Part shown: piece by piece, positions 1-10,586 of the stretch
Layout: each line of letters opens with the position of its first letter
Numbering within the stretch: position 1 is the first letter of the stretch
DNA from: a virus
Taxonomy: Duplodnaviria; Heunggongvirae; Uroviricota; Caudoviricetes
Direction: 5' to 3' (one strand)
Virus record (IMG/VR): IMGVR_UViG_2548876941_000012
Length of the DNA: 32,850 nucleotides
The notes under the pieces: generated by a model
Told to the model about the DNA's origin: nothing
Seen by the model: only the letters and a program-made list of their open reading frames with translations
The model's database searches: none
Program-made: the position numbers and the translations under genes

Positions 1-2043
1 ATGTTTTATTCAGCCAATGAGCTGGCCGGTCTTCCTGGTTTGCCCGGTACAGTTCAGGGGGTGCGCTGGACGCTCAATCGGATCACAGAGACGCACCCAG
101 AATGGAAGCGCAAGCGCGAAGGCACCAAAGCATTCGAGTATCACATCGACTGCCTGCCCGCTGAAGCGCAGAAAGTTTTACGTAAGCGCCTGACTCATCA
201 GGTCCTGGAAGATGCACAACTGCCCGCCGTAGTTGAGCAGAAAGCAGTTAAAAACGTCGCCGTTCGCGATGAACTGGAGGTGATGGTCAAATGCCCGGAG
301 CTGGCATTACGCGAAGTCCAGTCACTGACCGACAAGCAAAAGGCCATCGCTGATGCGCGGATATTGCTGGCTACTGAAGTGCATAAGCTGCGCGAGTATG
401 CCGGAATGACCAGGAAGGCCGCTTTAAAGCACATCGTTGATGGTGTGCGCATGGGGGCGTTACCTGACCGCATTATCGAAGCAGCGAATACTGCAAATGC
501 ACGTCAGGGAAAGCGAACCGGTGTCAGCACCGGCAGCCTGGATAGCTGGTACTCCAGCTGGGTGATGGCGCGCGGTGATGCCAATCAGTTACTGGCGTTA
601 CTGGCTCCCGGTCATCATAAGGGAACACCGTGGGAGCAGGTCTGGTGGTTGAGCGATTTCTTTATGTTCTATCGCTCATGGAAGCGCCCGACTGTTGAAT
701 ATGCGTATCGTGAGTTTTCAGCCTGGTGGCATGAAAAACACGCGAATGATGCGGGAATGCTGGCGGCACTGCCTTCAGTTCACGCAGTAAGACGGGTGTT
801 AAGCAGCGTCCCGGTGATTGTTAAAGAGCGTTTCCGCTCCACCGGTTCAGCCTGGCGTTCGCTCAATCCCTTTGTGCGGCGCGACTGGACATCATTACCG
901 GTTAATGCGGTATGGGTCGGGGATGGTCACTGTATGAAAATGACCGCGTTTAACCCCCTGACCGGCAATATTTTCCGGCCAGAAGTGACGCTGGTTATGG
1001 ATGCGGGGCAACGCTTTGTTGTGGGCTGGTCACTGTCCCTGTCGGAGAACGTGATAGCCGTTGCTGATGCGTTACGTTACGGCATGGCGCAGCACGGGAT
1101 ACCGCTGATTTATTACTCCGATAACGGGGGCGGTGAAAAAAACCGGGTGCTTGATGCCGATATTACCGGGATTCTGCCCCGGCTGGGTGTGGAACATCAC
1201 ACGGGGATACCAGGTAACCCGCAGGGGCGCGGGGTGATTGAACGGGCAAACAAAGGAATACCCAAAGACGTGGCTCTGAGTTTCCAGACGTACTGCGCAA
1301 GGGATGCAGACAAGGAAACCGTAATGATGCAGCAACGGATTATGCAGTCAGCCATTAAGGCCACCCACAAAGGGAAAGAACTGACAAAACGGCAGGTTAA
1401 GGCGAGGGATGAAATCCCCACCTTTGAGCAACTGCTGGCAGCCATAGAGCTGGAGGTCAGACGCTATAACAACCGGCCACACAGCAGCCTACCCCGCAAA
1501 GAGGATGGCGAATATTACAGCCCGGCAGCGTATCGCCGGAAACTGATAAAAGAGCAGAATGTTGAAATTGATTTCCTGTCGCCGGAAGAACTGCATGAAA
1601 TGTTCAGACCGGAAGTGACGCGCAAAACATTTCGCGGGGAAATTCAGTTATTCAACAATATTTATTACTCATATGATCTGGCCGCAGAGCACGGGAATGA
1701 AGTCAGGGTCAGTTACGATATTCATGATGCAAACAGCGTCATTGTCCGGCGGGCTGATGGCTCTTATATCTGCGATGCCATCTGGAACGGTAACAAGGTT
1801 GATGCCTTCGCTAAACCAGTTATCGAACAAAAACTGGAGAAACGCGTCAGGGGCCGCATTGCACGGGCTACGCAGAAAATCGAAGAGGCTAAACGCGAGC
1901 TTACCCCGGCTATTACGCAGAAGCCTGACTTTAATCTGGGATATGGACTGGAGCGCCCGGAGAAAAAGGAAAAAGAAGAACTTTATTTATTCGCATCTGA
2001 ACGCGAGCGCAATTTAAAGAAAAACGGCACAAACAACCGTTAA
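1..2043 (+). CDS. MuA-like DDE transposase
   Basis: 680-aa ORF. N-terminus (ANELAGLPGLPGT) resembles the end-binding domain of Mu transposase; catalytic-core-like motifs VWVGDGH and YYSDNGG; basic Lys/Arg-rich C-terminus; directly followed by a MuB-like ATPase. ORF begins at window position 1, so upstream control region is not visible. Confidence 0.9.
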   Translation: MFYSANELAGLPGLPGTVQGVRWTLNRITETHPEWKRKREGTKAFEYHIDCLPAEAQKVLRKRLTHQVLEDAQLPAVVEQKAVKNVAVRDELEVMVKCPELALREVQSLTDKQKAIADARILLATEVHKLREYAGMTRKAALKHIVDGVRMGALPDRIIEAANTANARQGKRTGVSTGSLDSWYSSWVMARGDANQLLALLAPGHHKGTPWEQVWWLSDFFMFYRSWKRPTVEYAYREFSAWWHEKHANDAGMLAALPSVHAVRRVLSSVPVIVKERFRSTGSAWRSLNPFVRRDWTSLPVNAVWVGDGHCMKMTAFNPLTGNIFRPEVTLVMDAGQRFVVGWSLSLSENVIAVADALRYGMAQHGIPLIYYSDNGGGEKNRVLDADITGILPRLGVEHHTGIPGNPQGRGVIERANKGIPKDVALSFQTYCARDADKETVMMQQRIMQSAIKATHKGKELTKRQVKARDEIPTFEQLLAAIELEVRRYNNRPHSSLPRKEDGEYYSPAAYRRKLIKEQNVEIDFLSPEELHEMFRPEVTRKTFRGEIQLFNNIYYSYDLAAEHGNEVRVSYDIHDANSVIVRRADGSYICDAIWNGNKVDAFAKPVIEQKLEKRVRGRIARATQKIEEAKRELTPAITQKPDFNLGYGLERPEKKEKEELYLFASERERNLKKNGTNNR

Positions 2044-2061
2044 TTTAAAAGGTATTTAATT

Positions 2062-2955
2062 ATGAGTTTAATTACGCAATTAAATGACGTAATGGCCCGT
2101 CGCGGCTATACGCAGACCCACGTCGCCCGTGCTATTGGTCGTAGCAGCGCCGTTATCAACCAGTATTTACAGGGTAAATATCAGGGCGATATGGCTGATA
2201 TTGAAGAACGCATTTCTGCCTTTGTGACCCGTGAGCGGGAAAAGGAAAACAGCCGCCGTATTAAAGCGAAATTTGTTGCCACCGGTATGGCTGCCAAAGG
2301 ACTGGAAGTGCTGGCCTATGCTCACCTGGAATGTGAAATCTGCGTACTGTATGGCGCGGCAGGTCTTGGCAAAACAATGATTCTGCGTGAATACGCCGCC
2401 AGAAACCGGGATGCGGTCCTGATTGAAGCTGACCCGGGCTATACAGCCAGAACACTGCTTGAGGAGCTGTGCCGCCAGCTGGGGGTAAAAGTTCGCGGCA
2501 ATATCCACGAACTGATTGATGCATGTGTGCGAGAACTGCGTGATTCCGGTCGCCTGCTGATGGTGGACGAGGCTGAACTGCTCCCCTATCGCGCACTGGA
2601 GGTTCTGCGCCGTCTGCATGACAAAGCGGGTATCGGGATTGTCCTGGCGGGTATGCCACGCCTTCTGATTAACCTCAAGGGACGTCGCGGTGAGTTCGCC
2701 CAGTTATACAGCCGTGTGGCGCTGGCGCTTAACCTGGGCGATACGCTGTCGCAGGAAGATTTTAACCAGATAGCCACCGGGCTGATGCCGGAAGCAGTAG
2801 AACCGGAAATCAGCGAGGCGCTTTACGAACGCTCGCTGGGTAATGCCCGCCGCCTCTTCAAACTGGCGCGCGGTGTGTACCGGATTTGTGATATCAGCGA
2901 TGCACCGGTCAGTGTGCAGGCCATTGATAAATTCGCAGAAATGTTAATTCACTGA
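2062..2955 (+). CDS. MuB-like AAA+ ATPase (DNA transposition target protein B)
   Basis: 297 aa. N-terminal HTH-like segment (TQTHVARAIGRSSAVINQYLQGKY), Walker A GAAGLGKT, Walker B LLMVDEAE. Position immediately after the transposase. Confidence 0.85.
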   Translation: MSLITQLNDVMARRGYTQTHVARAIGRSSAVINQYLQGKYQGDMADIEERISAFVTREREKENSRRIKAKFVATGMAAKGLEVLAYAHLECEICVLYGAAGLGKTMILREYAARNRDAVLIEADPGYTARTLLEELCRQLGVKVRGNIHELIDACVRELRDSGRLLMVDEAELLPYRALEVLRRLHDKAGIGIVLAGMPRLLINLKGRRGEFAQLYSRVALALNLGDTLSQEDFNQIATGLMPEAVEPEISEALYERSLGNARRLFKLARGVYRICDISDAPVSVQAIDKFAEMLIH

Positions 2956-3194
2956 TGGAGAACAAGACGATGGACAAGCAGACCATTAACGCCGTCCGTT
3001 CCCGTGCCCGTGTGGCCATCCACACCACTGGTGGTCGTGTAACGGGACAACATCACCGTTTACCTGTGGTTTATGCCTGCCCGCCCGTGGGTGGTCCTGT
3101 ATGGCCGGTAACGGAAATCATCCAGACATTCAGCGGCCTGCGCCGCGTGGTGAAAACATCCTGTATCGACGGCTGCACCGTCGTATGGCAATGA
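2955..3194 (+). CDS. hypothetical early protein
   Basis: 79-aa ORF whose ATG overlaps the B stop codon (TGATG). No recognisable motif; possible alternative start at the internal Met (MDKQ). Confidence 0.4.
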   Translation: MENKTMDKQTINAVRSRARVAIHTTGGRVTGQHHRLPVVYACPPVGGPVWPVTEIIQTFSGLRRVVKTSCIDGCTVVWQ

Positions 3195-3206
3195 GAGGAA
3201 ATCAGA

Positions 3207-3422
3207 ATGGCGGTCAAGTTAGAAGTAATTATCTACACCGATGAAAATGGCACGCTTCGTGTCAGGAGTATGGGGGCTATTGATAAAAAAGGATTTACGG
3301 ATGAAGAGGTCGGTGTAAGACAACGGTTATGGGAGGTAATGAATCAAACTCTTAATAAAGAATTTAACGGCGTTGATTTATTTTCTGTTGGCGTGGAACC
3401 CTGCGCGCATAACACACATTAA
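3207..3422 (+). CDS. hypothetical early protein
   Basis: 71-aa ORF with good SD (AGAGGAAA) upstream of ATG; somewhat AT-richer than neighbours. Confidence 0.5.
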   Translation: MAVKLEVIIYTDENGTLRVRSMGAIDKKGFTDEEVGVRQRLWEVMNQTLNKEFNGVDLFSVGVEPCAHNTH

Positions 3423-3451
3423 TCTGTAAATATCACTGAGGTAATTTAATT

Positions 3452-4096
3452 ATGACGACTGAAAATAAAGTTAAGCAATACACGAAAACTCAAGCGCCTG
3501 AAGGTTACTGGGTGGATGCCCGTGGCGTAATGACACCTGAAAGCCTTATCAAAGATATTGACCGCGACCGCGAGCAGCTGGTCGGTGAGCTTGTGGAGAT
3601 GGTGATTGCTGCCTCCGCCTCACTGCGGGAACTGAAACTGCGTGCGTTTGGTGATATTCAGGCGTTTATTGACCTGTCGGCGGAGAAATACGGCGCTGTG
3701 AAAGGCGGTAAAAAAGGGAATATCACGCTTTACAGCTTTGACGGGCGTTACAAGATTCAGCGCGCCATGCAGGACCGTATCGCGTTTGATGAACGCATTC
3801 AGACCGCGAAGTCGCTGATTGATGATTGCCTGGCTGACTGGACGGAAGATGCACGCCCTGAAATTAAGGCCATCATCAGTGAGGCATTCAGCACGGACAA
3901 GGAAGGCAACATCAACACCGGTCGCGTTCTGGCCCTGCGTCGCCTCGAGATTGAGGACGAACGCTGGAATAACGCCATGTCGCTGATTGGTGAAGCCGTC
4001 CAGGTAATTGGCAGCAAAAGCTATATCCGCGTGTATGAGCGCGTCGGTGATTCTGCTGAATACCGCGCAATCCCGCTTGATATTGCAGGGGTTTAA
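3452..4096 (+). CDS. conserved Mu-like phage early protein (DUF3164-like, assignment from memory)
   Basis: 214-aa ORF, SD GAGG upstream. Family call is recollection only, not a search result. Confidence 0.6.
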   Translation: MTTENKVKQYTKTQAPEGYWVDARGVMTPESLIKDIDRDREQLVGELVEMVIAASASLRELKLRAFGDIQAFIDLSAEKYGAVKGGKKGNITLYSFDGRYKIQRAMQDRIAFDERIQTAKSLIDDCLADWTEDARPEIKAIISEAFSTDKEGNINTGRVLALRRLEIEDERWNNAMSLIGEAVQVIGSKSYIRVYERVGDSAEYRAIPLDIAGV

Positions 4097-4097
4097 C

Positions 4098-4331
4098 ATG
4101 CATCAGGATATCAAAGAGTACAGGGCTGGGAACCGTTGCGCAGCGTATTCGCTGGGCGCGTCCAGAGCAGAACAACGCGGCGATTATGCCGAAGCTGAAA
4201 AACTGTGGCGTAAGGCAGCACAAAGCCCGTGTAGTACCCTGCGCCGCATCTGGGCGGAACACCGGGCAGAGTTCTGTGCCAATGCTCACCTGAAAGGATG
4301 GAAGCCGCCTCATGAACGCGAAACGCTTTAA
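4098..4331 (+). CDS. small protein, possibly ANR-family-like
   Basis: ATG at 4098 two nt after the upstream stop; 77 aa with AAYSLGASRAEQRGDYAEAEKLWRKAA and RAEFCANAHLKGW segments. The track ORF 4008-4331 uses an upstream alternative start that overlaps the previous gene. Confidence 0.45.
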   Translation: MHQDIKEYRAGNRCAAYSLGASRAEQRGDYAEAEKLWRKAAQSPCSTLRRIWAEHRAEFCANAHLKGWKPPHERETL

Positions 4332-4503
4332 TCAGCTATATCCGCCAGGGACTCGCTTCATGCACATTGCACATCGGGCAGTGCGTGGTGGTCGGGTGGT
4401 AAAAACTGTTGCACCTGCCAGAGATTTTAAATGTGGTTGTGTGGTTGAAATTAATGTCGAGCCTTATTTCGTTAAAGTCGAAACACTGAAAGCACCGCAT
4501 TAA
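4312..4503 (+). CDS. hypothetical protein
   Basis: 63-aa ORF overlapping the upstream gene by 20 nt; last gene before an AT-rich gap containing a hairpin. Confidence 0.45.
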   Translation: MNAKRFNQLYPPGTRFMHIAHRAVRGGRVVKTVAPARDFKCGCVVEINVEPYFVKVETLKAPH

Positions 4504-4532
4504 TTTAATTTGTTTTTAATTGTTATTTAAAA

Positions 4533-4566
4533 CAGGCGTAAACCCGCAGGGGCTGGCTTACGCCTG
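4533..4566 (-). terminator. hairpin, probable terminator for the minus-strand gene 4644-4862
   Basis: 9-bp inverted repeat CAGGCGTAA / TTACGCCTG around a 16-nt loop. On the minus strand it is followed by TGTTTTAAAT; on the plus strand there is no U-tract. Confidence 0.4.
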
Positions 4567-4643
4567 AATCTGAGGAAGTTTATTTATGAATATTGCTAAG
4601 CAAAAAAAATTCGCCCGCGAAATTAATCTGACAATCGTTTGTT

Positions 4644-4862
4644 TTAATCGTCTTGCGACCAGTTCTCAATCGACAGCAGATGTTCATCCAGCGCCGCAGC
4701 CAGAACGAACTCCCCACGTTCCTGAAGGCCGTGCTGGAAGTTGCGTAATTCAGAATCCAGGGCGCTGAGGTTCAGACAGCCATTTTCTGAAAGCTGTTTA
4801 ACCAGAAAGCTCCACGCAGCTTTGTTAGCAGTAATTGCTGCCGCAATTTCATCATCAATCAT
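4644..4862 (-). CDS. reverse-oriented small acidic protein (72 aa), function unknown
   Basis: Only convincing minus-strand ORF in the window. SD AGGAG 5 nt upstream of ATG on the minus strand; enteric-like codon usage; net charge about -9 with acidic C-terminus ENWSQDD; downstream hairpin with U-tract. Confidence 0.5.
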   Translation of the reverse strand: MIDDEIAAAITANKAAWSFLVKQLSENGCLNLSALDSELRNFQHGLQERGEFVLAAALDEHLLSIENWSQDD

Positions 4863-4950
4863 TTTTTAACTCCTGATTGGGTATGTTGGGGCAGCGATTA
4901 TGACAAGTGTTTTGTGGTTATAAGTTGATCAAAAACAATGAGTTACAACC

Positions 4951-5661
4951 ATGAAAGATAAATACATTGCCAAAATCAAAAAACTGTTACGCCTTGCCAA
5001 AGGAACATCAAGCCCGGAAGAAGCCGCTAACGCTATTGCAAAAGCCCAGGCTTATATGCGCCAGCATGGTATCAGCGAAAACGACGCGGAATTGTTCGAC
5101 ATTCAGGAAGCTGCCAGCGCGGGTGCGCCGAGTGACGCCAGTACGCCGCCGCGTTATATGCACATCCTGTGTGACCTAGTCTGTAAAGCCTTCGGTGTCG
5201 AGTGTTACATCTCCGGCGAATACCGGGCTTCTGGTTCACTTAAACGTTACGTGCGTTTTTATGGTCCTGACAGCCGCCCGGAAATCGCGGCTTACGCGTT
5301 TGATGTGCTTTCCCGTCAGATGATGGCAGAGCGCAAGAAATATCAGGATAAACACTGCAAACGTTGTGGTCCGTCCACGCGGGTAGCCCGTGGCGACCAG
5401 TTCTGCGAAGGCTGGGTCTTTGGTGCCCGTGATGTCATTGCGGTGTATGACGTCTCCCCGGAAGAAAAAAGCCGCCTTGAGCTTTACAGAAAGAACCTGC
5501 ACAGCACTAAGGGACTGCGCGACGGGGATATGCGCACAGCTAAAGCGTGTCGGGGTGCAGAGTTTGCCGCTACTGCCGGTTTTATCGCCGGGAAGAACGC
5601 CAGGCTGCATCAGGGGGTTAATGGTCAGAGCAACAGACCGCTGGCACTGGGGAGGGTGTAA
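4951..5661 (+). CDS. DUF2786-like phage protein
   Basis: 236 aa. N-terminus KIKKLLRLAKGTSSPEEAANAIAKAQAYMRQHGI matches my memory of the DUF2786 N-terminal helix pair; Cys-containing C-terminal domain. Confidence 0.65.
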   Translation: MKDKYIAKIKKLLRLAKGTSSPEEAANAIAKAQAYMRQHGISENDAELFDIQEAASAGAPSDASTPPRYMHILCDLVCKAFGVECYISGEYRASGSLKRYVRFYGPDSRPEIAAYAFDVLSRQMMAERKKYQDKHCKRCGPSTRVARGDQFCEGWVFGARDVIAVYDVSPEEKSRLELYRKNLHSTKGLRDGDMRTAKACRGAEFAATAGFIAGKNARLHQGVNGQSNRPLALGRV

Positions 5662-5663
5662 CG

Positions 5664-5891
5664 ATGGCTTTTAAACTTCTTAGTGTTACCGAAGCAATAT
5701 ACCAGCCGCCCGGAGAACGCCACGAATACAGGATGAATGACGGTAGCGCGGTGGTTGAGTTCCCCGGATATCCGGGGGCTTCCCGGTGGCGGTTCTATGA
5801 CAGTGTGGGACGTCGGATTATTAAAAGAACCGTGCACAACAATATGAAGGCTGCCGTAGAACGTCATAAGAGAAGGTTTAACTGCAAATGA
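5664..5891 (+). CDS. hypothetical protein
   Basis: 75-aa ORF; SD GGAGGG upstream; starts 3 nt after the preceding stop. Confidence 0.5.
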   Translation: MAFKLLSVTEAIYQPPGERHEYRMNDGSAVVEFPGYPGASRWRFYDSVGRRIIKRTVHNNMKAAVERHKRRFNCK

Positions 5892-6118
5892 AAATTGAAT
5901 TTTATGACCATGGGGTCACCGCAACTATCACTATTTCTTGTTGGTTCTGGGAGTTCCACCGTTACTTCAGAGTTGTAGATGCTGCGCTGTTTGTTGCACC
6001 GGGAGCGTTACATCACAGTGGAATCGGTATTGTTATGAACACTGTCATCAGCGGTAAAACGGTCCCGATGTTGCGGGCGTTTAAAGTGGCAAAACAGGAG
6101 GCTGGCAATGGTCATTGA
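5888..6118 (+). CDS. hypothetical protein
   Basis: 76-aa ORF with ATGA stop/start overlap with the upstream gene. Confidence 0.45.
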   Translation: MKIEFYDHGVTATITISCWFWEFHRYFRVVDAALFVAPGALHHSGIGIVMNTVISGKTVPMLRAFKVAKQEAGNGH

Positions 6119-6422
6119 TAAAACGATAACGATAGATGTAGCCATGAATACAGGTCTGGCGCTTATCGGTTATGGCTATATCACTTTTATGTCATTCAGG
6201 TGGTTGATTTCTTCGCTCTTTAAGCAGCGTGAAAAACATCGTTGTAAAGACAAGCGCGCGAAGGCGCTAAATGCGTTTAATGACGCTTTTGATATTGACC
6301 ATATGCAACAGGGCGACCCCGCACGCGTAATTACCCGGGGAGATATTGTAATTCTTGTGTACCGGAATGAAAAAAATGAACAGGAGACAACCAGTGAGTC
6401 AGCAAACCAGAATAAGCGATAA
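6108..6422 (+). CDS. hypothetical membrane-associated protein
   Basis: 104 aa; SD CAGGAGG upstream; hydrophobic segment GLALIGYGYITFMSFRWLISSLF followed by a basic/acidic tail. Confidence 0.5.
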   Translation: MVIDKTITIDVAMNTGLALIGYGYITFMSFRWLISSLFKQREKHRCKDKRAKALNAFNDAFDIDHMQQGDPARVITRGDIVILVYRNEKNEQETTSESANQNKR

Positions 6423-6558
6423 GAGTCTGACCAGACTGATTGCCGATGCGGACAAGGTGCTGGAGCGGAACTCCCCCGTTGCCGATGAGGAATGGTGGCA
6501 GGATTTCCGGGCTGCAATGCTGGAACTTCAGGAACGTCGTCGGGAGGTGTTGAAGTGA
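6394..6558 (+). CDS. hypothetical small protein
   Basis: Track ORF 6355-6558 (TTG start). Best-supported start is GTG at 6394 with SD GGAG 7 nt upstream, giving 54 aa; start is uncertain. Confidence 0.4.
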   Translation: MSQQTRISDKSLTRLIADADKVLERNSPVADEEWWQDFRAAMLELQERRREVLK

Positions 6559-6824
6559 GTGAATTAAAGTGTCGAATTAATGGCAATCAGATAGAACCGT
6601 GTGCGGTACTGGCAAAAGCACTCGAATATGGAAATCCAGCCTTTAAGAGTAAAGGCATATTTATCCCGGAACGCGTGAATATAAACACCGGCGAGCCAGG
6701 CTTAGACATTGCTCAAATTCACTCCGGCCAATATGTCGGTCGTGGTGTTGCCATGTGTTTTTGCCCGTTCTGTGGTGAAAGTCTGAAAACATGGAAAAAG
6801 GAGGCAACCAGTGAGCGAGATTAA
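6555..6824 (+). CDS. hypothetical protein with Cys motif
   Basis: Track ORF 6492-6824. GTG at 6555 has SD GGAGG upstream and overlaps the upstream stop; contains CFCPFCG and an earlier KC...PC pair, suggestive of a small zinc-ribbon. Confidence 0.5.
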   Translation: MSELKCRINGNQIEPCAVLAKALEYGNPAFKSKGIFIPERVNINTGEPGLDIAQIHSGQYVGRGVAMCFCPFCGESLKTWKKEATSERD

Positions 6825-7308
6825 CTATCAGGCACTGCGTGAGGTGGCAGAGGCCGCGAAGGGGGATACGACGTGGCAGAACCTACAGGCTTTTCATGCT
6901 GCGGCTACGCCGGAGGTTGTGCAGGCGTTGCTGGATGAAAACGAAAGACTGTGTCGCGATCTGATAGCTCGTAATGGTGAGATTGAAGGGCTTCGGGAGT
7001 GGGCAGAAGAACTGGAGGCACGGGAGGTGGCTTTGCCAGTAGCGTCATGCATTGTTGAAGATGGATGCATGTGTGTTGATGGGTTCAGTGAGTATGTAGG
7101 TCACTCGCTACCTGATGGAATGCATGAGCTTTATGCTGCCCCGCCAGCGTCGGTAGTGCCGGAAGGACTAGTTAAAGCAGTGCGTTTCTATGAACAGGTA
7201 AAGTGTGAGAATCCGCCAGTCGAAACCGGAGCATGGAAAGACGCGGTTGACTGGGTACTCAACGAGGCTTGCCAGGCTGTAAATATTGACGCCAAAGGAG
7301 GTGCGTAA
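6811..7308 (+). CDS. acidic protein with Ead/Ea22-like N-terminal region (tentative)
   Basis: 165 aa, GTG start with SD GGAGG. N-terminus NYQALREVAEAAKGDTTWQ and ATPEVVQALLDENERL resembles, from memory, the N-terminal region of lambdoid Ea22/Ead-family proteins. Confidence 0.5.
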   Translation: MSEINYQALREVAEAAKGDTTWQNLQAFHAAATPEVVQALLDENERLCRDLIARNGEIEGLREWAEELEAREVALPVASCIVEDGCMCVDGFSEYVGHSLPDGMHELYAAPPASVVPEGLVKAVRFYEQVKCENPPVETGAWKDAVDWVLNEACQAVNIDAKGGA

Positions 7309-7478
7309 TGCGTGTAGCGTTTATCGGTTTATTACCATACCCGACTCGTTTTTGGGCTTCTGCGCTAATTGCAAAGCCACATGCCCTGATGGCTGACAGC
7401 ATCATCCCGGCACCAAAGCGCCATACCGGTATTGCTGCTGCACGACGCGAAGCAAAGAAACGCAGGAGAGCAAAATGA
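7308..7478 (+). CDS. small hydrophobic/basic peptide (56 aa), below the ORF-track size cut-off
   Basis: ATG at 7308 overlaps the upstream stop (TAATG), strong SD AGGAGG 7 nt upstream; stop overlaps the next start (ATGATG). Hydrophobic N-half (AFIGLLPYPTRFWASALIA) and Arg/Lys-rich C-terminus. Confidence 0.4.
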   Translation: MRVAFIGLLPYPTRFWASALIAKPHALMADSIIPAPKRHTGIAAARREAKKRRRAK

Positions 7479-7663
7479 TGAAAAACCGTAAGGCAAGACT
7501 GCTGATAGCAAAGCCAGGGCAACTTATCCGTATCTCAAATCGACTTGTTGTTCGCTATAGATATCTTGGTTTTAGGGAGTGGTCCTCTATTCGTTTTTAC
7601 GGTGTCTGGAGAAACAGAAGCGCGACACAAAACCGCTGGAAGAATCACACTAACGCAAAGTAA
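7475..7663 (+). CDS. small basic protein, function unknown
   Basis: 62-aa ORF, SD AGGAGA upstream; Arg/Lys-rich. Confidence 0.45.
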   Translation: MMKNRKARLLIAKPGQLIRISNRLVVRYRYLGFREWSSIRFYGVWRNRSATQNRWKNHTNAK

Positions 7664-7680
7664 TTAAATAATAACCAATA

Positions 7681-7708
7681 GCAGACCAAAAAGTATTTTT
7701 TGGTCTGC
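7681..7708. promoter_or_regulatory. perfect 12-bp palindrome (GCAGACCAAAAA gtat TTTTTGGTCTGC) with adjacent TTTTGGTC repeat
   Basis: Read directly; lies in a 67-nt intergenic gap inside the early region. Stem contains its own A/T tract, so it could be a bidirectional terminator or a protein-binding site. Confidence 0.4.
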
Positions 7709-7730
7709 CAAAAGTGATGTTTTGGTCATT

Positions 7731-8009
7731 ATGAAGATTGAACAAATCGGAATGGCAGCTTTCAGGCAACAGGCTGAAAGCGGTGGCGTGGATGAGTTCG
7801 TCGTGCAGCGGTTCGGTGGTGTGTATCATCTATTCGCTGTGAATCGCCGCGCCGGGGTGTCCTATTTTCTACAGGAACGTCGTGGCGATTACAAGACATG
7901 GCTGTCTCTTGACCGTGCCGCTGCGTTCTTGTCAGGGATTGGCGTTTCACGTTTTACCGTGCGTTTTGAGGATAACAAACATGCTGAAAAAGATGATCGG
8001 GGCCATTAA
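7731..8009 (+). CDS. hypothetical protein
   Basis: Track ORF 7722-8009 (TTG); first ATG at 7731. 92 aa; overlaps the next gene by 29 nt. Confidence 0.5.
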   Translation: MKIEQIGMAAFRQQAESGGVDEFVVQRFGGVYHLFAVNRRAGVSYFLQERRGDYKTWLSLDRAAAFLSGIGVSRFTVRFEDNKHAEKDDRGH

Positions 8010-8379
8010 AGCCGGTCAGGCGTATCTGGGGTGGGATGATGCCCTTTATCGCCAGACGCTGGCCCGCCTGACCGGTAAAACCAGCACCACACGCTGCAAT
8101 CTCGATGAACTGCGCATCATCCGGGAATACATGCACGAACAGGGATTCCCGCGCAAGGCACCCGCTGGTAAAGGTCGCCGCCCTCGTGTTGCAATGAGCA
8201 GAAAATCAGTATTATCCAAAATTGAAGCGTTGCTGGCTGATGCCGGTCGTTCCTGGGCGTATGCAGAAGGACTGGCATCTCACATGTATAAGCAACATGT
8301 GATCGAATGGCTGACGGATGAACAGCTTTTTGGAGTGATGGTGGCGCTGGTTAAAGATTCAAGAAGGAGAAATCAATGA
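7981..8379 (+). CDS. GemA-like protein (DUF1018-like, tentative)
   Basis: ATG at 7981 within the larger track ORF 7882-8379; 132 aa; position just upstream of the Mor/C-family gene as gemA is in Mu; sequence features (AYLGWDDALYRQTLARLTGKTS) recalled as GemA-like. Confidence 0.55.
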   Translation: MLKKMIGAIKAGQAYLGWDDALYRQTLARLTGKTSTTRCNLDELRIIREYMHEQGFPRKAPAGKGRRPRVAMSRKSVLSKIEALLADAGRSWAYAEGLASHMYKQHVIEWLTDEQLFGVMVALVKDSRRRNQ

Positions 8380-8852
8380 TGAAAAAATGGTTGTTTTGTT
8401 TAGTAGGGGTTATTTTCTCTTGTTCTGTGCTAGCACAGACAGAGGAACAGGCGCAAAAGGAACTGAAACGTTATCAGGATATGAAGCCATTGGCTGAACA
8501 GATGCTTCGGGAAAGTGGAAAACTTTATTACGCTATGCCAGAAGCTGCATCGCAGTATCAGCAGGGAAATATTGAAGAGTGGAAGAATATCAAAAAAGGA
8601 CTAAAACAACTGGATGAACAGGCCAGTAAACTGGGGGACGACCCGCTTGATCCTGTGTATGGTTCCTGCATAAAAATGAAAAACCAGCTACAGGATTACT
8701 GGTCTAACGTTATCAGGGATGACAGGCAGTTTCTGGAGCGTTCAAGAAATCAGTTTAAAGAATATCGTATGGATTGTTTTGATTCGTTTGTTTTTGGTAA
8801 AGAGCAAATAGAATCAAGAAAAGGCCTGGTTATTCTAGACCTGACTAAATAA
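8376..8852 (+). CDS. secreted or periplasmic protein of unknown function (moron candidate)
   Basis: 158 aa with N-terminal signal peptide (MMKKWLFCLVGVIFSCSVLA, likely cleavage after VLA); visibly AT-richer than flanking phage genes; followed by a strong intrinsic terminator. Confidence 0.7.
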   Translation: MMKKWLFCLVGVIFSCSVLAQTEEQAQKELKRYQDMKPLAEQMLRESGKLYYAMPEAASQYQQGNIEEWKNIKKGLKQLDEQASKLGDDPLDPVYGSCIKMKNQLQDYWSNVIRDDRQFLERSRNQFKEYRMDCFDSFVFGKEQIESRKGLVILDLTK

Positions 8853-8862
8853 GACTTAGTTT

Positions 8863-8890
8863 AGCCCCTGCCATGCAGGGGCTTTTTTTG
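8863..8890 (+). terminator. rho-independent terminator
   Basis: AGCCCCTGC cat GCAGGGGCT stem-loop followed by TTTTTTT. Confidence 0.8.
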
Positions 8891-8894
8891 TGGT

Positions 8895-8923
8895 CTGTAC
8901 AGGCGATCATGTATGGCTATAAT
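8895..8923 (+). promoter_or_regulatory. promoter-like element with consensus -10 and weak -35
   Basis: TATAAT at 8918-8923; the hexamer 17 nt upstream is CTGTAC (poor match to TTGACA); about 30 nt upstream of the Mor/C-family gene. Confidence 0.45.
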
Positions 8924-8952
8924 AACAGTAAGTTACTACCGGAGACGCCATC

Positions 8953-9420
8953 ATGCAGACCTTCAGTGAAACAGATCTTCGCGATGCGCAGGCACTGCTG
9001 CCCGATTCCGTGCAGCAACTGATTAGCGTGATTGGCTTCCCCGCCCTGACCCGGTTGATTCGTTCTTTTGGTGGCGTGACGTTAAGCGGTAAAACCGGCG
9101 TACACGCCGAACGCACCGGCGGTGTCCATGCCCTGTTACATGACGTGCTCACCGAAGACGAAATCAACAAACTGATCCGCTTTCTTGGCGGTGCTCCGTT
9201 TTACATTCCCCGTTGCGATCATGCGTTACGTGCCCTGCGTAACACCCGTTTTATGGCTGATTTACAGCAGCATGTAAAAGACGGATGCTCACACCGGCAG
9301 GCGCTGGCACTGCTCTGTCCCCGTTACGGCATTTCAGACCGGTACGCATGGCAGCTGATACACCGACGACAAAAACAGACTTCGCTGAAAAGCCCCACCC
9401 AGGTGGGGCTTTTTGATTAA
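8953..9420 (+). CDS. Mor/C-family transcriptional activator
   Basis: 155 aa; LGGAPFYIPR motif and C-terminal HTH-like LCPRYGISDRYAWQLIHRR resemble Mu Mor/C proteins; position between early region and lysis genes. Confidence 0.7.
   Translation: MQTFSETDLRDAQALLPDSVQQLISVIGFPALTRLIRSFGGVTLSGKTGVHAERTGGVHALLHDVLTEDEINKLIRFLGGAPFYIPRCDHALRALRNTRFMADLQQHVKDGCSHRQALALLCPRYGISDRYAWQLIHRRQKQTSLKSPTQVGLFD
9391..9415 (+). terminator. rho-independent terminator overlapping the 3' end of the Mor/C-family gene
   Basis: AGCCCCAC ccag GTGGGGCT stem-loop followed by TTTTT, ending 3 nt before the stop codon. Confidence 0.7.
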
Positions 9421-9446
9421 TGGGCCTCAGAAAAAAGGAGACACTT

Positions 9447-9725
9447 ATGACCAACTATATGGCACTTGGCGAGTATACGGCCTACTCAGAGCAGGCCCGG
9501 GATGCTGCCGGACGTCGCTTTGCTTATATGAAAAATTTGGCCAGTCAGTTAAACCGAATGGCCGAACAACCGGATATGGTTGTTCAGGAAGAAGCGTTGC
9601 AGTGTGCCATTGCTGACATCATCGCCAGCGAAAACGAGATGCGCGCAGCGATGGAAAAGGCGAACGCCTCTGCTCCGCTTTGTAATAAACCTCTTATTAC
9701 GCCGGATTCTCTTTCCCGCTTCTGA
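9447..9725 (+). CDS. hypothetical protein
   Basis: Track ORF 9420-9725; ATG at 9447 has SD AGGAGA 6 nt upstream, giving 92 aa. Confidence 0.5.
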   Translation: MTNYMALGEYTAYSEQARDAAGRRFAYMKNLASQLNRMAEQPDMVVQEEALQCAIADIIASENEMRAAMEKANASAPLCNKPLITPDSLSRF

Positions 9726-9730
9726 TTTAT

Positions 9731-9750
9731 CACCCCGCCGCCGCGGGGTG
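9731..9750 (+). promoter_or_regulatory. GC-rich hairpin (CACCCCGC cgcc GCGGGGTG)
   Basis: Perfect 8-bp stem, 4-nt loop, no U-tract; its 3' arm overlaps the start of the dyad motif at 9748. Confidence 0.45.
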
Positions 9751-9775
9751 CTGAACTCCCCCAGCAGTACCCACC
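9748..9775 (+). promoter_or_regulatory. candidate late-promoter activator site, copy 1 (GTGCTGAACTCCCCCAGCAGTACCCACC)
   Basis: One of three copies of a GTGCTGAAC-NCCC motif found upstream of late operons (others at 17903 and 29821); about 130 nt upstream of the lysis cassette start. Confidence 0.5.
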
Positions 9776-9907
9776 ACACCAGACCGTTTACCCTGTCCAC
9801 TCAGACCACAAGGCACCTTAAGGGATAGCGCCCTGCAAAAGGCTTTTGTGCCTTTGACAGGGTGTTATTTACGGGCCGTCAGTGGCTCAGATTTACAGGA
9901 GAAACTC

Positions 9908-10300
9908 ATGTCTGAACCCTTATCAGGCGGCGGAGCTGTGGCAGTCACCATCGGTGGTGCCAGTGTGTTTGGCCTTCTCACCAATACCGATTTCGGGGTC
10001 GTGGTGGGCGCGTTTGCCGGGGCGCTTTTTGTTGTCACTCAGCAGAAAGAAATCCCGGTATGGCGAATGGCTATTCACCTGCTCGTCGCGTTTGTGGTTG
10101 GCGTTCTGGGGGCTGGCGTGGCTGCGTCACTGATGCAGTGGCTGACCCACTACAACGACAAACCGCTTGATGCATTGTGTGCGGTCGGTGTCTCGGCGTT
10201 ATCCATCAAGATACTGACCTTTCTTTATCAACAGGAAATTTCATCGCTGTTCGGCCTGTTTTCCAGACTGCGCGGCGGAGGGGGTGGAAATGGAAAGTAG
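9908..10300 (+). CDS. holin-like membrane protein
   Basis: Track ORF 9848-10300; ATG at 9908 with SD AGGAG; 130 aa with three hydrophobic helices; first gene of the lysis cassette. Confidence 0.6.
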   Translation: MSEPLSGGGAVAVTIGGASVFGLLTNTDFGVVVGAFAGALFVVTQQKEIPVWRMAIHLLVAFVVGVLGAGVAASLMQWLTHYNDKPLDALCAVGVSALSIKILTFLYQQEISSLFGLFSRLRGGGGGNGK

Positions 10301-10586
10301 CCTTGCCGGTATCGTGAACGTCTGGCTGTGTCTCGCCATTGTGCTGGGGTTGTTTGTGTATCGCCGCCACGGTGCGGCGCATAAACCGATGATTACCTGG
10401 CTGGCGTACTGGCTGATGCTCGGCTACATCATCATCCCGTTCCGCTGGCTGTCCGGTACATACACGCACTCCAGCTGGCTGGTTGTGGCGCTGAATCTGG
10501 TTTTCTGTGCGCTTATCGTGTGGGCGCACGGGAATTTGTCAAAAATCCTTTCGTTACTGAGGCATCCACATGAAATCAAAAGATGA
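10290..10586 (+). CDS. membrane protein (holin/antiholin-like)
   Basis: Track ORF 10284-10586 (GTG); ATG at 10290 with SD GGAGGGGG upstream; 98 aa with multiple hydrophobic helices; overlaps flanking genes. Confidence 0.5.
   Translation: MESSLAGIVNVWLCLAIVLGLFVYRRHGAAHKPMITWLAYWLMLGYIIIPFRWLSGTYTHSSWLVVALNLVFCALIVWAHGNLSKILSLLRHPHEIKR

Follow-up and report, generated by a model that had tools for sequence, protein, structure and literature searches.

Gene content of the early-region cassette

We analysed a 32,850-nucleotide (nt) stretch of viral DNA (IMG/VR record IMGVR_UViG_2548876941_000012; hereafter the window), and in it positions 5664-7663 (hereafter the cassette), a run of small genes lying between the gene for a DUF2786 protein and a right flank made up of a 92-amino-acid (aa) open reading frame (ORF) and the gene for GemA. 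By its sequence, the window is a Mu-like transposable prophage of the Escherichia coli O127:H6 E2348/69 type. Positions 4900-8400 align over their full length with the E2348/69 chromosome at 99.9% identity (megablast), and the gene order given by RefSeq and Pfam therefore identifies the surroundings of the cassette as the early region of such a prophage (Table 1).

The plus strand of the cassette holds exactly eight ORFs of at least 54 aa, and not the nine counted in an original prediction made from the letters of the sequence and a list of their ORFs. The sizes given there (54-165 aa) and the coupling by overlapping stops and starts are borne out, with all seven junctions overlapping by 4, 11, 29, 4, 14, 1 and 4 nt from 5' to 3'. 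A GGAGG, AGGAG or GAAGG motif lies at most 20 nt 5' of every one of the eight starts, mostly 5-10 nt from the start codon. Taken together, the ORFs cover 100% of the 2000 nt, compared with a mean of 33% and a maximum of 75% in 1000 dinucleotide-preserving shuffles (0/1000 reached 100%). All eight match PHROG families, every one of which is of unknown function, and codon changes are mainly synonymous in those cassette ORFs that could be tested.

The RefSeq annotation (PGAP) of the E2348/69 locus includes six of the eight ORFs and omits the 75-aa and 62-aa ORFs at the two ends of the cassette, which raises the alternative that some ORFs, notably these two, are not genes and that the dense tiling is partly accidental. 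The 62-aa ORF, in addition, is unusual in being rich in Arg and aromatic residues, and its close relatives differ by too few substitutions for selection to be tested. Against this, none of the five sister prophages has a disrupted 75-aa ORF, and the codon changes in it (11 synonymous, 4 non-synonymous) favour the third position; it also has a strong family match (phrog_9400) and homologs in three genera, while the 62-aa ORF matches phrog_1380, is 49% identical to p51 of phage phiV10 (E 1e-13; 37% to p50, E 5e-5) and is annotated both in the original GenBank entry, which includes at least this ORF (CAS10194.1), and as a homolog by PGAP in strain 47-1826. Both ORFs have a Shine-Dalgarno motif and an overlapping start or stop, and the tiling was never matched by the shuffles. 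We consider an accidental origin scarcely credible and already largely refuted. Because of the family matches, the coding signatures, the Shine-Dalgarno motifs and a tiling beyond chance, all eight ORFs are taken, on these sequence criteria, to be real genes.

Table 1 Features of the cassette and of the surrounding early region
Feature	Position	Strand	Similarity or source	Remark
Mu-type transposase (A)	1-2043	same direction as cassette	RefSeq and Pfam	
AAA+ B protein	2062-2955	same direction as cassette	RefSeq and Pfam	
79-aa ORF, Kil-like	2955-3194		weak similarity	directly after B, overlapping the B stop
DUF3164 protein	3452-4096		RefSeq and Pfam	
63-aa gene	4312-4503			also in VW-6B and Klebsiella ST405-OXA48phi1.1
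ANR-type regulator			RefSeq/Pfam order	between the DUF3164 and DUF2786/DUF7168 genes
72-aa ORF	4644-4862	minus	annotated in RefSeq	
DUF2786 + DUF7168 protein	4951-5661		Pfam	left neighbour of cassette
75-aa basic protein, pI 10.3	5664-5891	+	phrog_9400 (1.6e-39)	not in RefSeq
76-aa protein, unknown function	5888-6118	+	phrog_1001 (4e-29)	ATGA overlap with preceding gene
104-aa DUF4752 protein	6108-6422	+	Pfam PF15944, phrog_667	
54-aa acidic protein	6394-6558	+	phrog_14672 (1.5e-31)	GTG start; in RefSeq
89-aa Cys4 protein	6555-6824	+	C-x9-C ... (53 residues) ... C-x2-C	GTG start
165-aa acidic Ea22-family protein	6811-7308	+	Pfam Ead_Ea22 (PF13935)	GTG start
56-aa very basic protein, pI 12	7308-7478	+	phrog_13831 (8e-36)	
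62-aa very basic Arg/aromatic-rich protein, pI 12	7475-7663	+	phrog_1380 (1e-9)	last cassette gene; not in RefSeq
Perfect inverted repeat	7681-7709	.	GCAGACCAAAAA/TTTTTGGTCTGC	boundary landmark, not a gene
92-aa ORF				right flank; after the 7714-7721 repeat copy, before GemA
GemA	7981-8379		RefSeq/Pfam	
158-aa ORF	8376-8852			between GemA and Mor
Mor	8953-9420		RefSeq/Pfam	followed by lysis and morphogenesis genes
pI: isoelectric point.

Exchange of the middle genes between constant flanks

All five sister E. coli prophages keep the left flank (the DUF2786, 75-aa, 76-aa, DUF4752 and 54-aa genes) and the right flank (the 92-aa ORF and GemA), and between these constant flanks they exchange 6555-7663. 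Two of the five have the Cys4 gene, the place of the Ea22 gene is taken by alleles of 28-34% identity or is empty, and the two basic peptides may be retained, divergent or absent, with other unknown ORFs appearing. With constant flanks and a swapped middle, the cassette is indeed the variable early cassette of a Mu-type prophage that had been proposed, and when cassette content is compared more widely across Mu-like prophages, the genes that separate the 75-aa gene from GemA in the Klebsiella and Pseudomonas phages are quite different. Among 5426 complete E. coli genomes, only 4, all from the O127:H6 lineage, have the exact combination at 6394-7663. Pieces of it measuring 100-250 bp turn up in 1102 of these genomes, with plasmids accounting for 380 of the places.

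The right edge of the variable segment coincides with the perfect inverted repeat, which lies where a palindrome at 7681 had been reported. This repeat is kept in six prophage loci whatever the upstream gene, and one position of its stem co-varies (A..T here, C..G in AVS0151, STEC346 and M8). The element may be an operator, or may form alternative RNA hairpins, controlling the 92-aa ORF and GemA. We also observed a third copy of TTTTGGTC at 7714-7721, just 5' of the ATG of the 92-aa ORF, and promoter-like hexamers ATCACA-17-AATAAT at 7644-7672; no plus-strand promoter-like site was found inside the cassette before 7644.

The left genes

The left neighbour of the cassette, described earlier as DUF2786-like, carries both a DUF2786 and a DUF7168 domain according to Pfam, and the 75-aa gene always directly follows it. 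Homologs of the 75-aa protein with 36-43% identity occupy the same early-region position in Pseudomonas VW-6B and Klebsiella ST405-OXA48phi1.1, and on this comparison it is a backbone gene of this Mu-like lineage. Its family is small, with 17 representatives among 1.84 billion proteins (exhaustive phmmer), and neither a PDB match by profile nor a Pfam match for its members was found.

The 76-aa protein is 69-100% identical across the five sister prophages, and homologs of it (39-47% identity) are encoded close to an end of the genome in several phages of lambdoid size, Fels-1 and Klebsiella phages among them. The 104-aa protein matches the DUF4752 profile over its whole length, positions 1-84, with 131 bits where the cut-off is 27. 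It had been put forward as membrane-anchored, and a conserved hydrophobic N-terminal stretch followed by a K/R cluster agrees with this, but the helix itself scores only borderline (Kyte-Doolittle 19-residue maximum 1.24; homologs 1.36-1.67), and we regard the protein as possibly membrane-anchored. It is 57% identical to orf78 of VT2-Sakai, which has a DksA/TraR-like zinc-finger gene on one side and an Ea22-like gene on the other, and 51% identical to the gene just upstream of the Ea22 gene of PhiR49_2; our literature search found no mention of DUF4752. The 54-aa gene makes the longest overlap of the cassette, with the DUF4752 3' end, and has GGAG 6 nt before its start codon. Its product, probably helical, is 60-94% identical in all five sister prophages.

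The Cys4 protein

The Cys-motif protein noted in the original prediction has four cysteines (C6, C16, C70 and C73) that are invariant in 31 homologs, and from this pattern it is a probable zinc-binding protein. It falls in no Pfam family and has no sequence or fold match in PDB. A TraR/DksA-like C4 zinc finger, as in lambda Orf73, was considered and rejected, there being no zf-dskA_traR match and the spacing differing from CxxC-x17-CxxC.

The Cys4 family is restricted to Enterobacterales phages, among them Mu-like, lambdoid and P1-like temperate elements and a virulent Salmonella siphovirus. Phage PH444, which is P1-like, has a copy of the gene with 87.7% DNA identity; in a Rac-like prophage the gene lies downstream of replication genes and directly precedes two Ea22-like genes. 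In the virulent Salmonella virus VSiP (Guernseyvirinae; L017 2019-2273), gp39 shares 72% protein identity with the Cys4 protein and sits between the DNA polymerase and helicase genes, an unusually close tie of virulent and temperate gene pools. In temperate phages the two basic peptides and an Ea22-type gene are often found along with the Cys4 gene. A strict pairing of the Cys4 and Ea22 genes was rejected: the two are adjacent here and in the Rac-like prophage, but the Cys4 gene stands alone in VSiP. That the Cys4 protein might be a new inhibitor that depends on zinc and acts on the host, against either an anti-phage defence or a factor of DNA metabolism, is an unlikely but conceivable reading.

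The Ea22-like protein and the two basic peptides

The acidic protein was predicted to have an Ea22-like N-terminus, and it matches the Ead_Ea22 profile over residues 2-96 with 59 bits (cut-off 27), with a pI of 4.3 and a charge of -18. Residues 1-61 alone align to lambda Ea22 (44% identity). No alignment to lambda Ea22 past residue 61 and no PDB sequence match were obtained, so that the dimeric C-terminal domain of the lambda type was not found. Instead, residues 91-163 match phrog_26213 at 1e-32, with a further match to phrog_660, and the C-terminal ~48 aa recur on unrelated prophage proteins of 145-150 aa. These alignments identify the protein as an Ead/Ea22 N-terminal and coiled-coil part with a different predicted C-terminal domain. 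Ea22 is described as a multidomain protein that favours lysogeny, its coiled coil being tetrameric and its C-terminal domain divergent (PMC8614690, PMC7093339, PMC10834534), and the C-terminal exchange seen here fits this published picture; tetramerisation and the pro-lysogenic effect are known from the lambda and Phi24B proteins only (PMC7093339, PMC10834534).

The last two small proteins, described earlier as basic or hydrophobic, are both very basic. The 56-aa protein has a hydrophobic N-terminal half and an RREAKKRRRAK tail. Its gene is the most widely spread module of the cassette, with ~90% DNA identity to phiV10, Shiga toxin (Stx) phages and the P1-like RCS47, and differs from the phiV10 copy by 10 synonymous versus 3 non-synonymous codon changes and an in-frame 3-nt indel. 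In phiV10 the gene order is Ea22-like, 58 aa, 60 aa. That a frameshift might fuse the 56- and 62-aa ORFs, as members of 145-150 aa in the 90% cluster had suggested, was rejected because these longer proteins share the C-terminal module of the Ea22-like protein and not the 56-aa sequence.

Absence of Gam

The cassette had been described as lacking a recognisable homolog of Mu Gam, and this stands. Among early-region proteins no match to PF07352 (Phage_Mu_Gam) was found at E<=0.1 (Pfam); tblastn of Mu Gam over the whole window had its best match in the late region, at E 0.26; a Gam hidden Markov model (HMM) run over six-frame ORFs of at least 40 aa in the whole window gave a best E of 1.8; and hhalign of each cassette protein against a Gam alignment gave a probability of at most 1%. 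For the DUF3164 and Cys4 proteins, the two whose fold was checked, no Gam/Ku fold match was seen. By these searches there is no Gam in the cassette or the window, and nothing detectable in the window replaces it. This absence is not unusual, since other Mu-like phages have been reported without Gam (PMC5488378).

With no Gam anywhere in the window, a non-homologous protein, either in the cassette or the upstream DUF3164 protein, could shield linear phage DNA ends from RecBCD in its stead. DUF3164, whose gene follows that of B, is frequent among Mu-like elements and is carried by two roseophages without Gam, and it is kept in VW-6B and a Klebsiella Mu-like phage. However, the DUF3164 and Gam profiles match with an hhalign probability of 0.2% and BLASTP finds no match between the proteins, the cassette proteins reach no more than the 1% given above, most of them are far shorter than the 174-aa Gam, and there are sister prophages without the variable genes. 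We therefore judge such a substitute very improbable. As a separate observation, Mu-like phages of E. coli have a conserved DUF3164 gene following B, as do those of Klebsiella (protein 55% identical) and Pseudomonas (41%). The AlphaFold2 model of the DUF3164 protein (pLDDT, the predicted local distance difference test, 78) consists of a long helix, a beta-sheet and further helices, and has no informative structural neighbour, being unrelated to Gam or Ku.

A probable mosaic accessory part of a Mu-like early operon

Our preferred explanation, which we hold with fair confidence, is that 5664-7663 is the mosaic accessory part of a Mu-like early operon and that its products are probably small, dispensable early modulators. 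The backbone of the operon is formed by A, B, the Kil-like gene, DUF3164, DUF2786, GemA and Mor, and the segment is the positional counterpart of the 'semi-essential early' region of Mu. The eight small genes would be read in one direction together with the transposition genes and translated by coupling, each stop overlapping the next start and each start having its own Shine-Dalgarno motif. The 75-aa gene belongs to the lineage backbone, and the other seven would come from a pool of small accessory genes that move by recombination among enterobacterial phages, with the lambdoid ea/exo-xis and nin regions, the epsilon15-like phiV10 and P1-like phage-plasmids, and for Cys4 also virulent Guernseyvirinae, as likely sources. 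Once the prophage is induced, the proteins of the cassette would bind proteins of the host or of the phage and so have a modulating effect, none of them being indispensable on its own. The Ea22-type protein would be a coiled-coil oligomer with an exchangeable C-terminal domain, accompanied by the Cys4 zinc protein, the possibly membrane-anchored DUF4752 protein and the two very basic peptides. Dispensability is hinted at by the sister prophages, where 6555-7663 is replaced or missing.

The original prediction had also placed these genes in the set of host-takeover functions kept by Mu-type phages, and that part falls: none of the eight is homologous to the Mu early region, and at least six belong to the lambdoid ea/exo-xis and nin and other enterobacterial phage accessory pool rather than to a Mu-specific set. 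No ORF falls in a characterised family, and none is a Gam. Neither NCBIfam nor PADLOC returned anything meaningful for the cassette, Rfam returned nothing inside the cluster, and the Pfam and PDB sequence searches of the cassette proteins were uninformative beyond the two family names DUF4752 and Ead_Ea22. The proposal that the cassette proteins are candidate inhibitors is kept here purely by inference.

Several points weigh against the modulator explanation. The protein-binding step is drawn from protein size, early position and the Ea22 literature. Transcription from an early promoter is assumed from gene orientation and from the lack of predicted promoters, the promoter itself lying outside the window. 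The lysis-lysogeny phenotype would be carried over from lambda and Phi24B proteins that share only ~60 N-terminal residues with the protein described here. Lastly, since the Cys4 gene is found in a virulent phage, a lysogeny-specific role cannot hold for Cys4.

The main rival is a counter-defence island, in which some or all of the small proteins would inhibit restriction, abortive infection or similar systems and the turnover of the middle genes would reflect an arms race. The predicted early, co-directional expression, the very high mosaicism with allele replacement and the small size of the proteins all agree with it, as does the close similarity of Cys4 between a virulent replication module and temperate phages, which fits a host-directed function better than one specific to lysogeny. 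On the other side, no similarity to characterised proteins emerged from Pfam, NCBIfam, PDB sequence or fold searches, and Ea22, the sole family member with a reported phenotype, affects the lysis-lysogeny decision. We regard counter-defence as a tentative alternative that is compatible with the data and not exclusive of the accessory-modulator explanation.

A further alternative is that the genes are lysogenic-conversion morons, expressed from the repressed prophage to the benefit of the host, for example by superinfection exclusion. The G+C of the cassette (0.49) is below that of the late region (0.55-0.60) and its modules are exchanged horizontally, as morons would be, but no promoter-like site or terminator frames the cassette genes, which run parallel to A and B in the early lytic operon and are translationally coupled, and a better moron candidate, the 158-aa ORF with its own terminator, lies outside the cassette. 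We give this alternative little credence, and it joins a Gam substitute and spurious ORFs among the unlikely explanations.

The above analyses change little for phage biology at large, the variable early small genes of Mu-like phages and the mosaic lambdoid ea/exo-xis genes being already known. They do provide a corrected gene list with two real genes missing from RefSeq, and they point to one accessory pool common to transposable, lambdoid, phage-plasmid and even virulent enterobacterial phages. They also yield a shortlist (the 75-aa backbone gene, Cys4 and the 56-aa basic peptide) that is cheap to test for toxicity or anti-defence in a well-studied enteropathogenic E. coli strain. Our literature search found nothing on the E2348/69 Mu-like prophage, on its locus tags or on anti-defence in Mu-like early regions.

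Neighbouring genes of the early region

The window is not strictly that of E2348/69: a single residue separates its 56-aa protein from CAS10193.1 (P36Q), and likewise its 62-aa protein from CAS10194.1 (R27H), and relative to NC_011601.1 there is an apparent one-base offset upstream of ~4900. The 79-aa ORF behind B shows a weak match to the C-terminus of Mu Kil (E 0.002) and 27% identity to the annotated kil of phage VW-6B (E 1e-4); RefSeq gives a slightly different ORF of 74 aa at this place. The minus-strand 72-aa ORF breaks the one-directional early operon, with ~140 and ~90 nt of non-coding DNA at its sides, and resembles the reversed gp15 gene of Mu.

To the right of the cassette, the 158-aa gene seems to be a moron whose insertion splits the early operon. 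Its product has a signal-peptide-like N-terminus (MMKKWLFCLVGVIFSCSVLAQ). The strongest terminator-like hairpin of the region (8863-8883, with a T run) lies 3' of this ORF and is followed by a promoter-like site at 8896-8923 (10/12 matches) ahead of Mor. In strain STEC346 the 158-aa gene is absent and GemA is separated from Mor by ~100 nt.

Comparison with known systems

The cassette lies in the same place as the semi-essential early region of Mu (kil, gp6-gp9, gam, gp11-gp14, up to gemA/mor), between A/B and GemA/Mor, and like that region it is a run of small, densely packed genes on the same strand as A and B. Homologs of Mu A, B, GemA and Mor, and more weakly the Kil-like ORF, were found in the window by tblastn against Mu 1-10500. 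Against the same interval the eight cassette proteins gave no tblastn match at E<=0.1, and hence no homology to gp6-gp14; unlike the Mu early region, the cassette is also without Gam.

The closest early slots in other genera are those of VW-6B and ST405-OXA48phi1.1, which share the DUF3164, 63-aa, 75-aa, GemA and Mor genes with the window. They differ in what follows the 75-aa gene: up to GemA they carry other genes, for example those for a YfdR-like HD hydrolase and a DUF977 protein, and the remaining seven cassette genes are all missing.

In content, the cassette can be compared with the exo-xis region of lambda and Stx phages (orf60a-orf63-orf61-orf73-ea22 plus variable genes), where a conserved block ending in ea22 is followed by variable genes, with small ORFs and early transcription (PMC8614690). 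Unlike that region, it belongs to a transposable phage and stands behind transposase genes, not between exo and xis, and it is without orf60a, orf61, orf63 and the TraR-like orf73. When lambda 27500-35800 was compared, the Ea22 N-terminus was the sole cassette match and the conserved exo-xis block was not found; the cassette gave no Pfam matches to DUF1317, DUF1382 or zf-dskA_traR, and neither exo nor xis lies nearby. What the cassette does share with the exo-xis region, and with the ea genes of P22-type phages, is a gene of the Ead/Ea22 family. As in VT2-Sakai, where the two are adjacent, DUF4752 and Ea22-like genes are both present, and the order of genes is like that between cI and xis/int of PhiR49_2, which runs from a DUF4752-like gene through a small ORF and Ea22 to genes of ~57 aa and about 60-62 aa.

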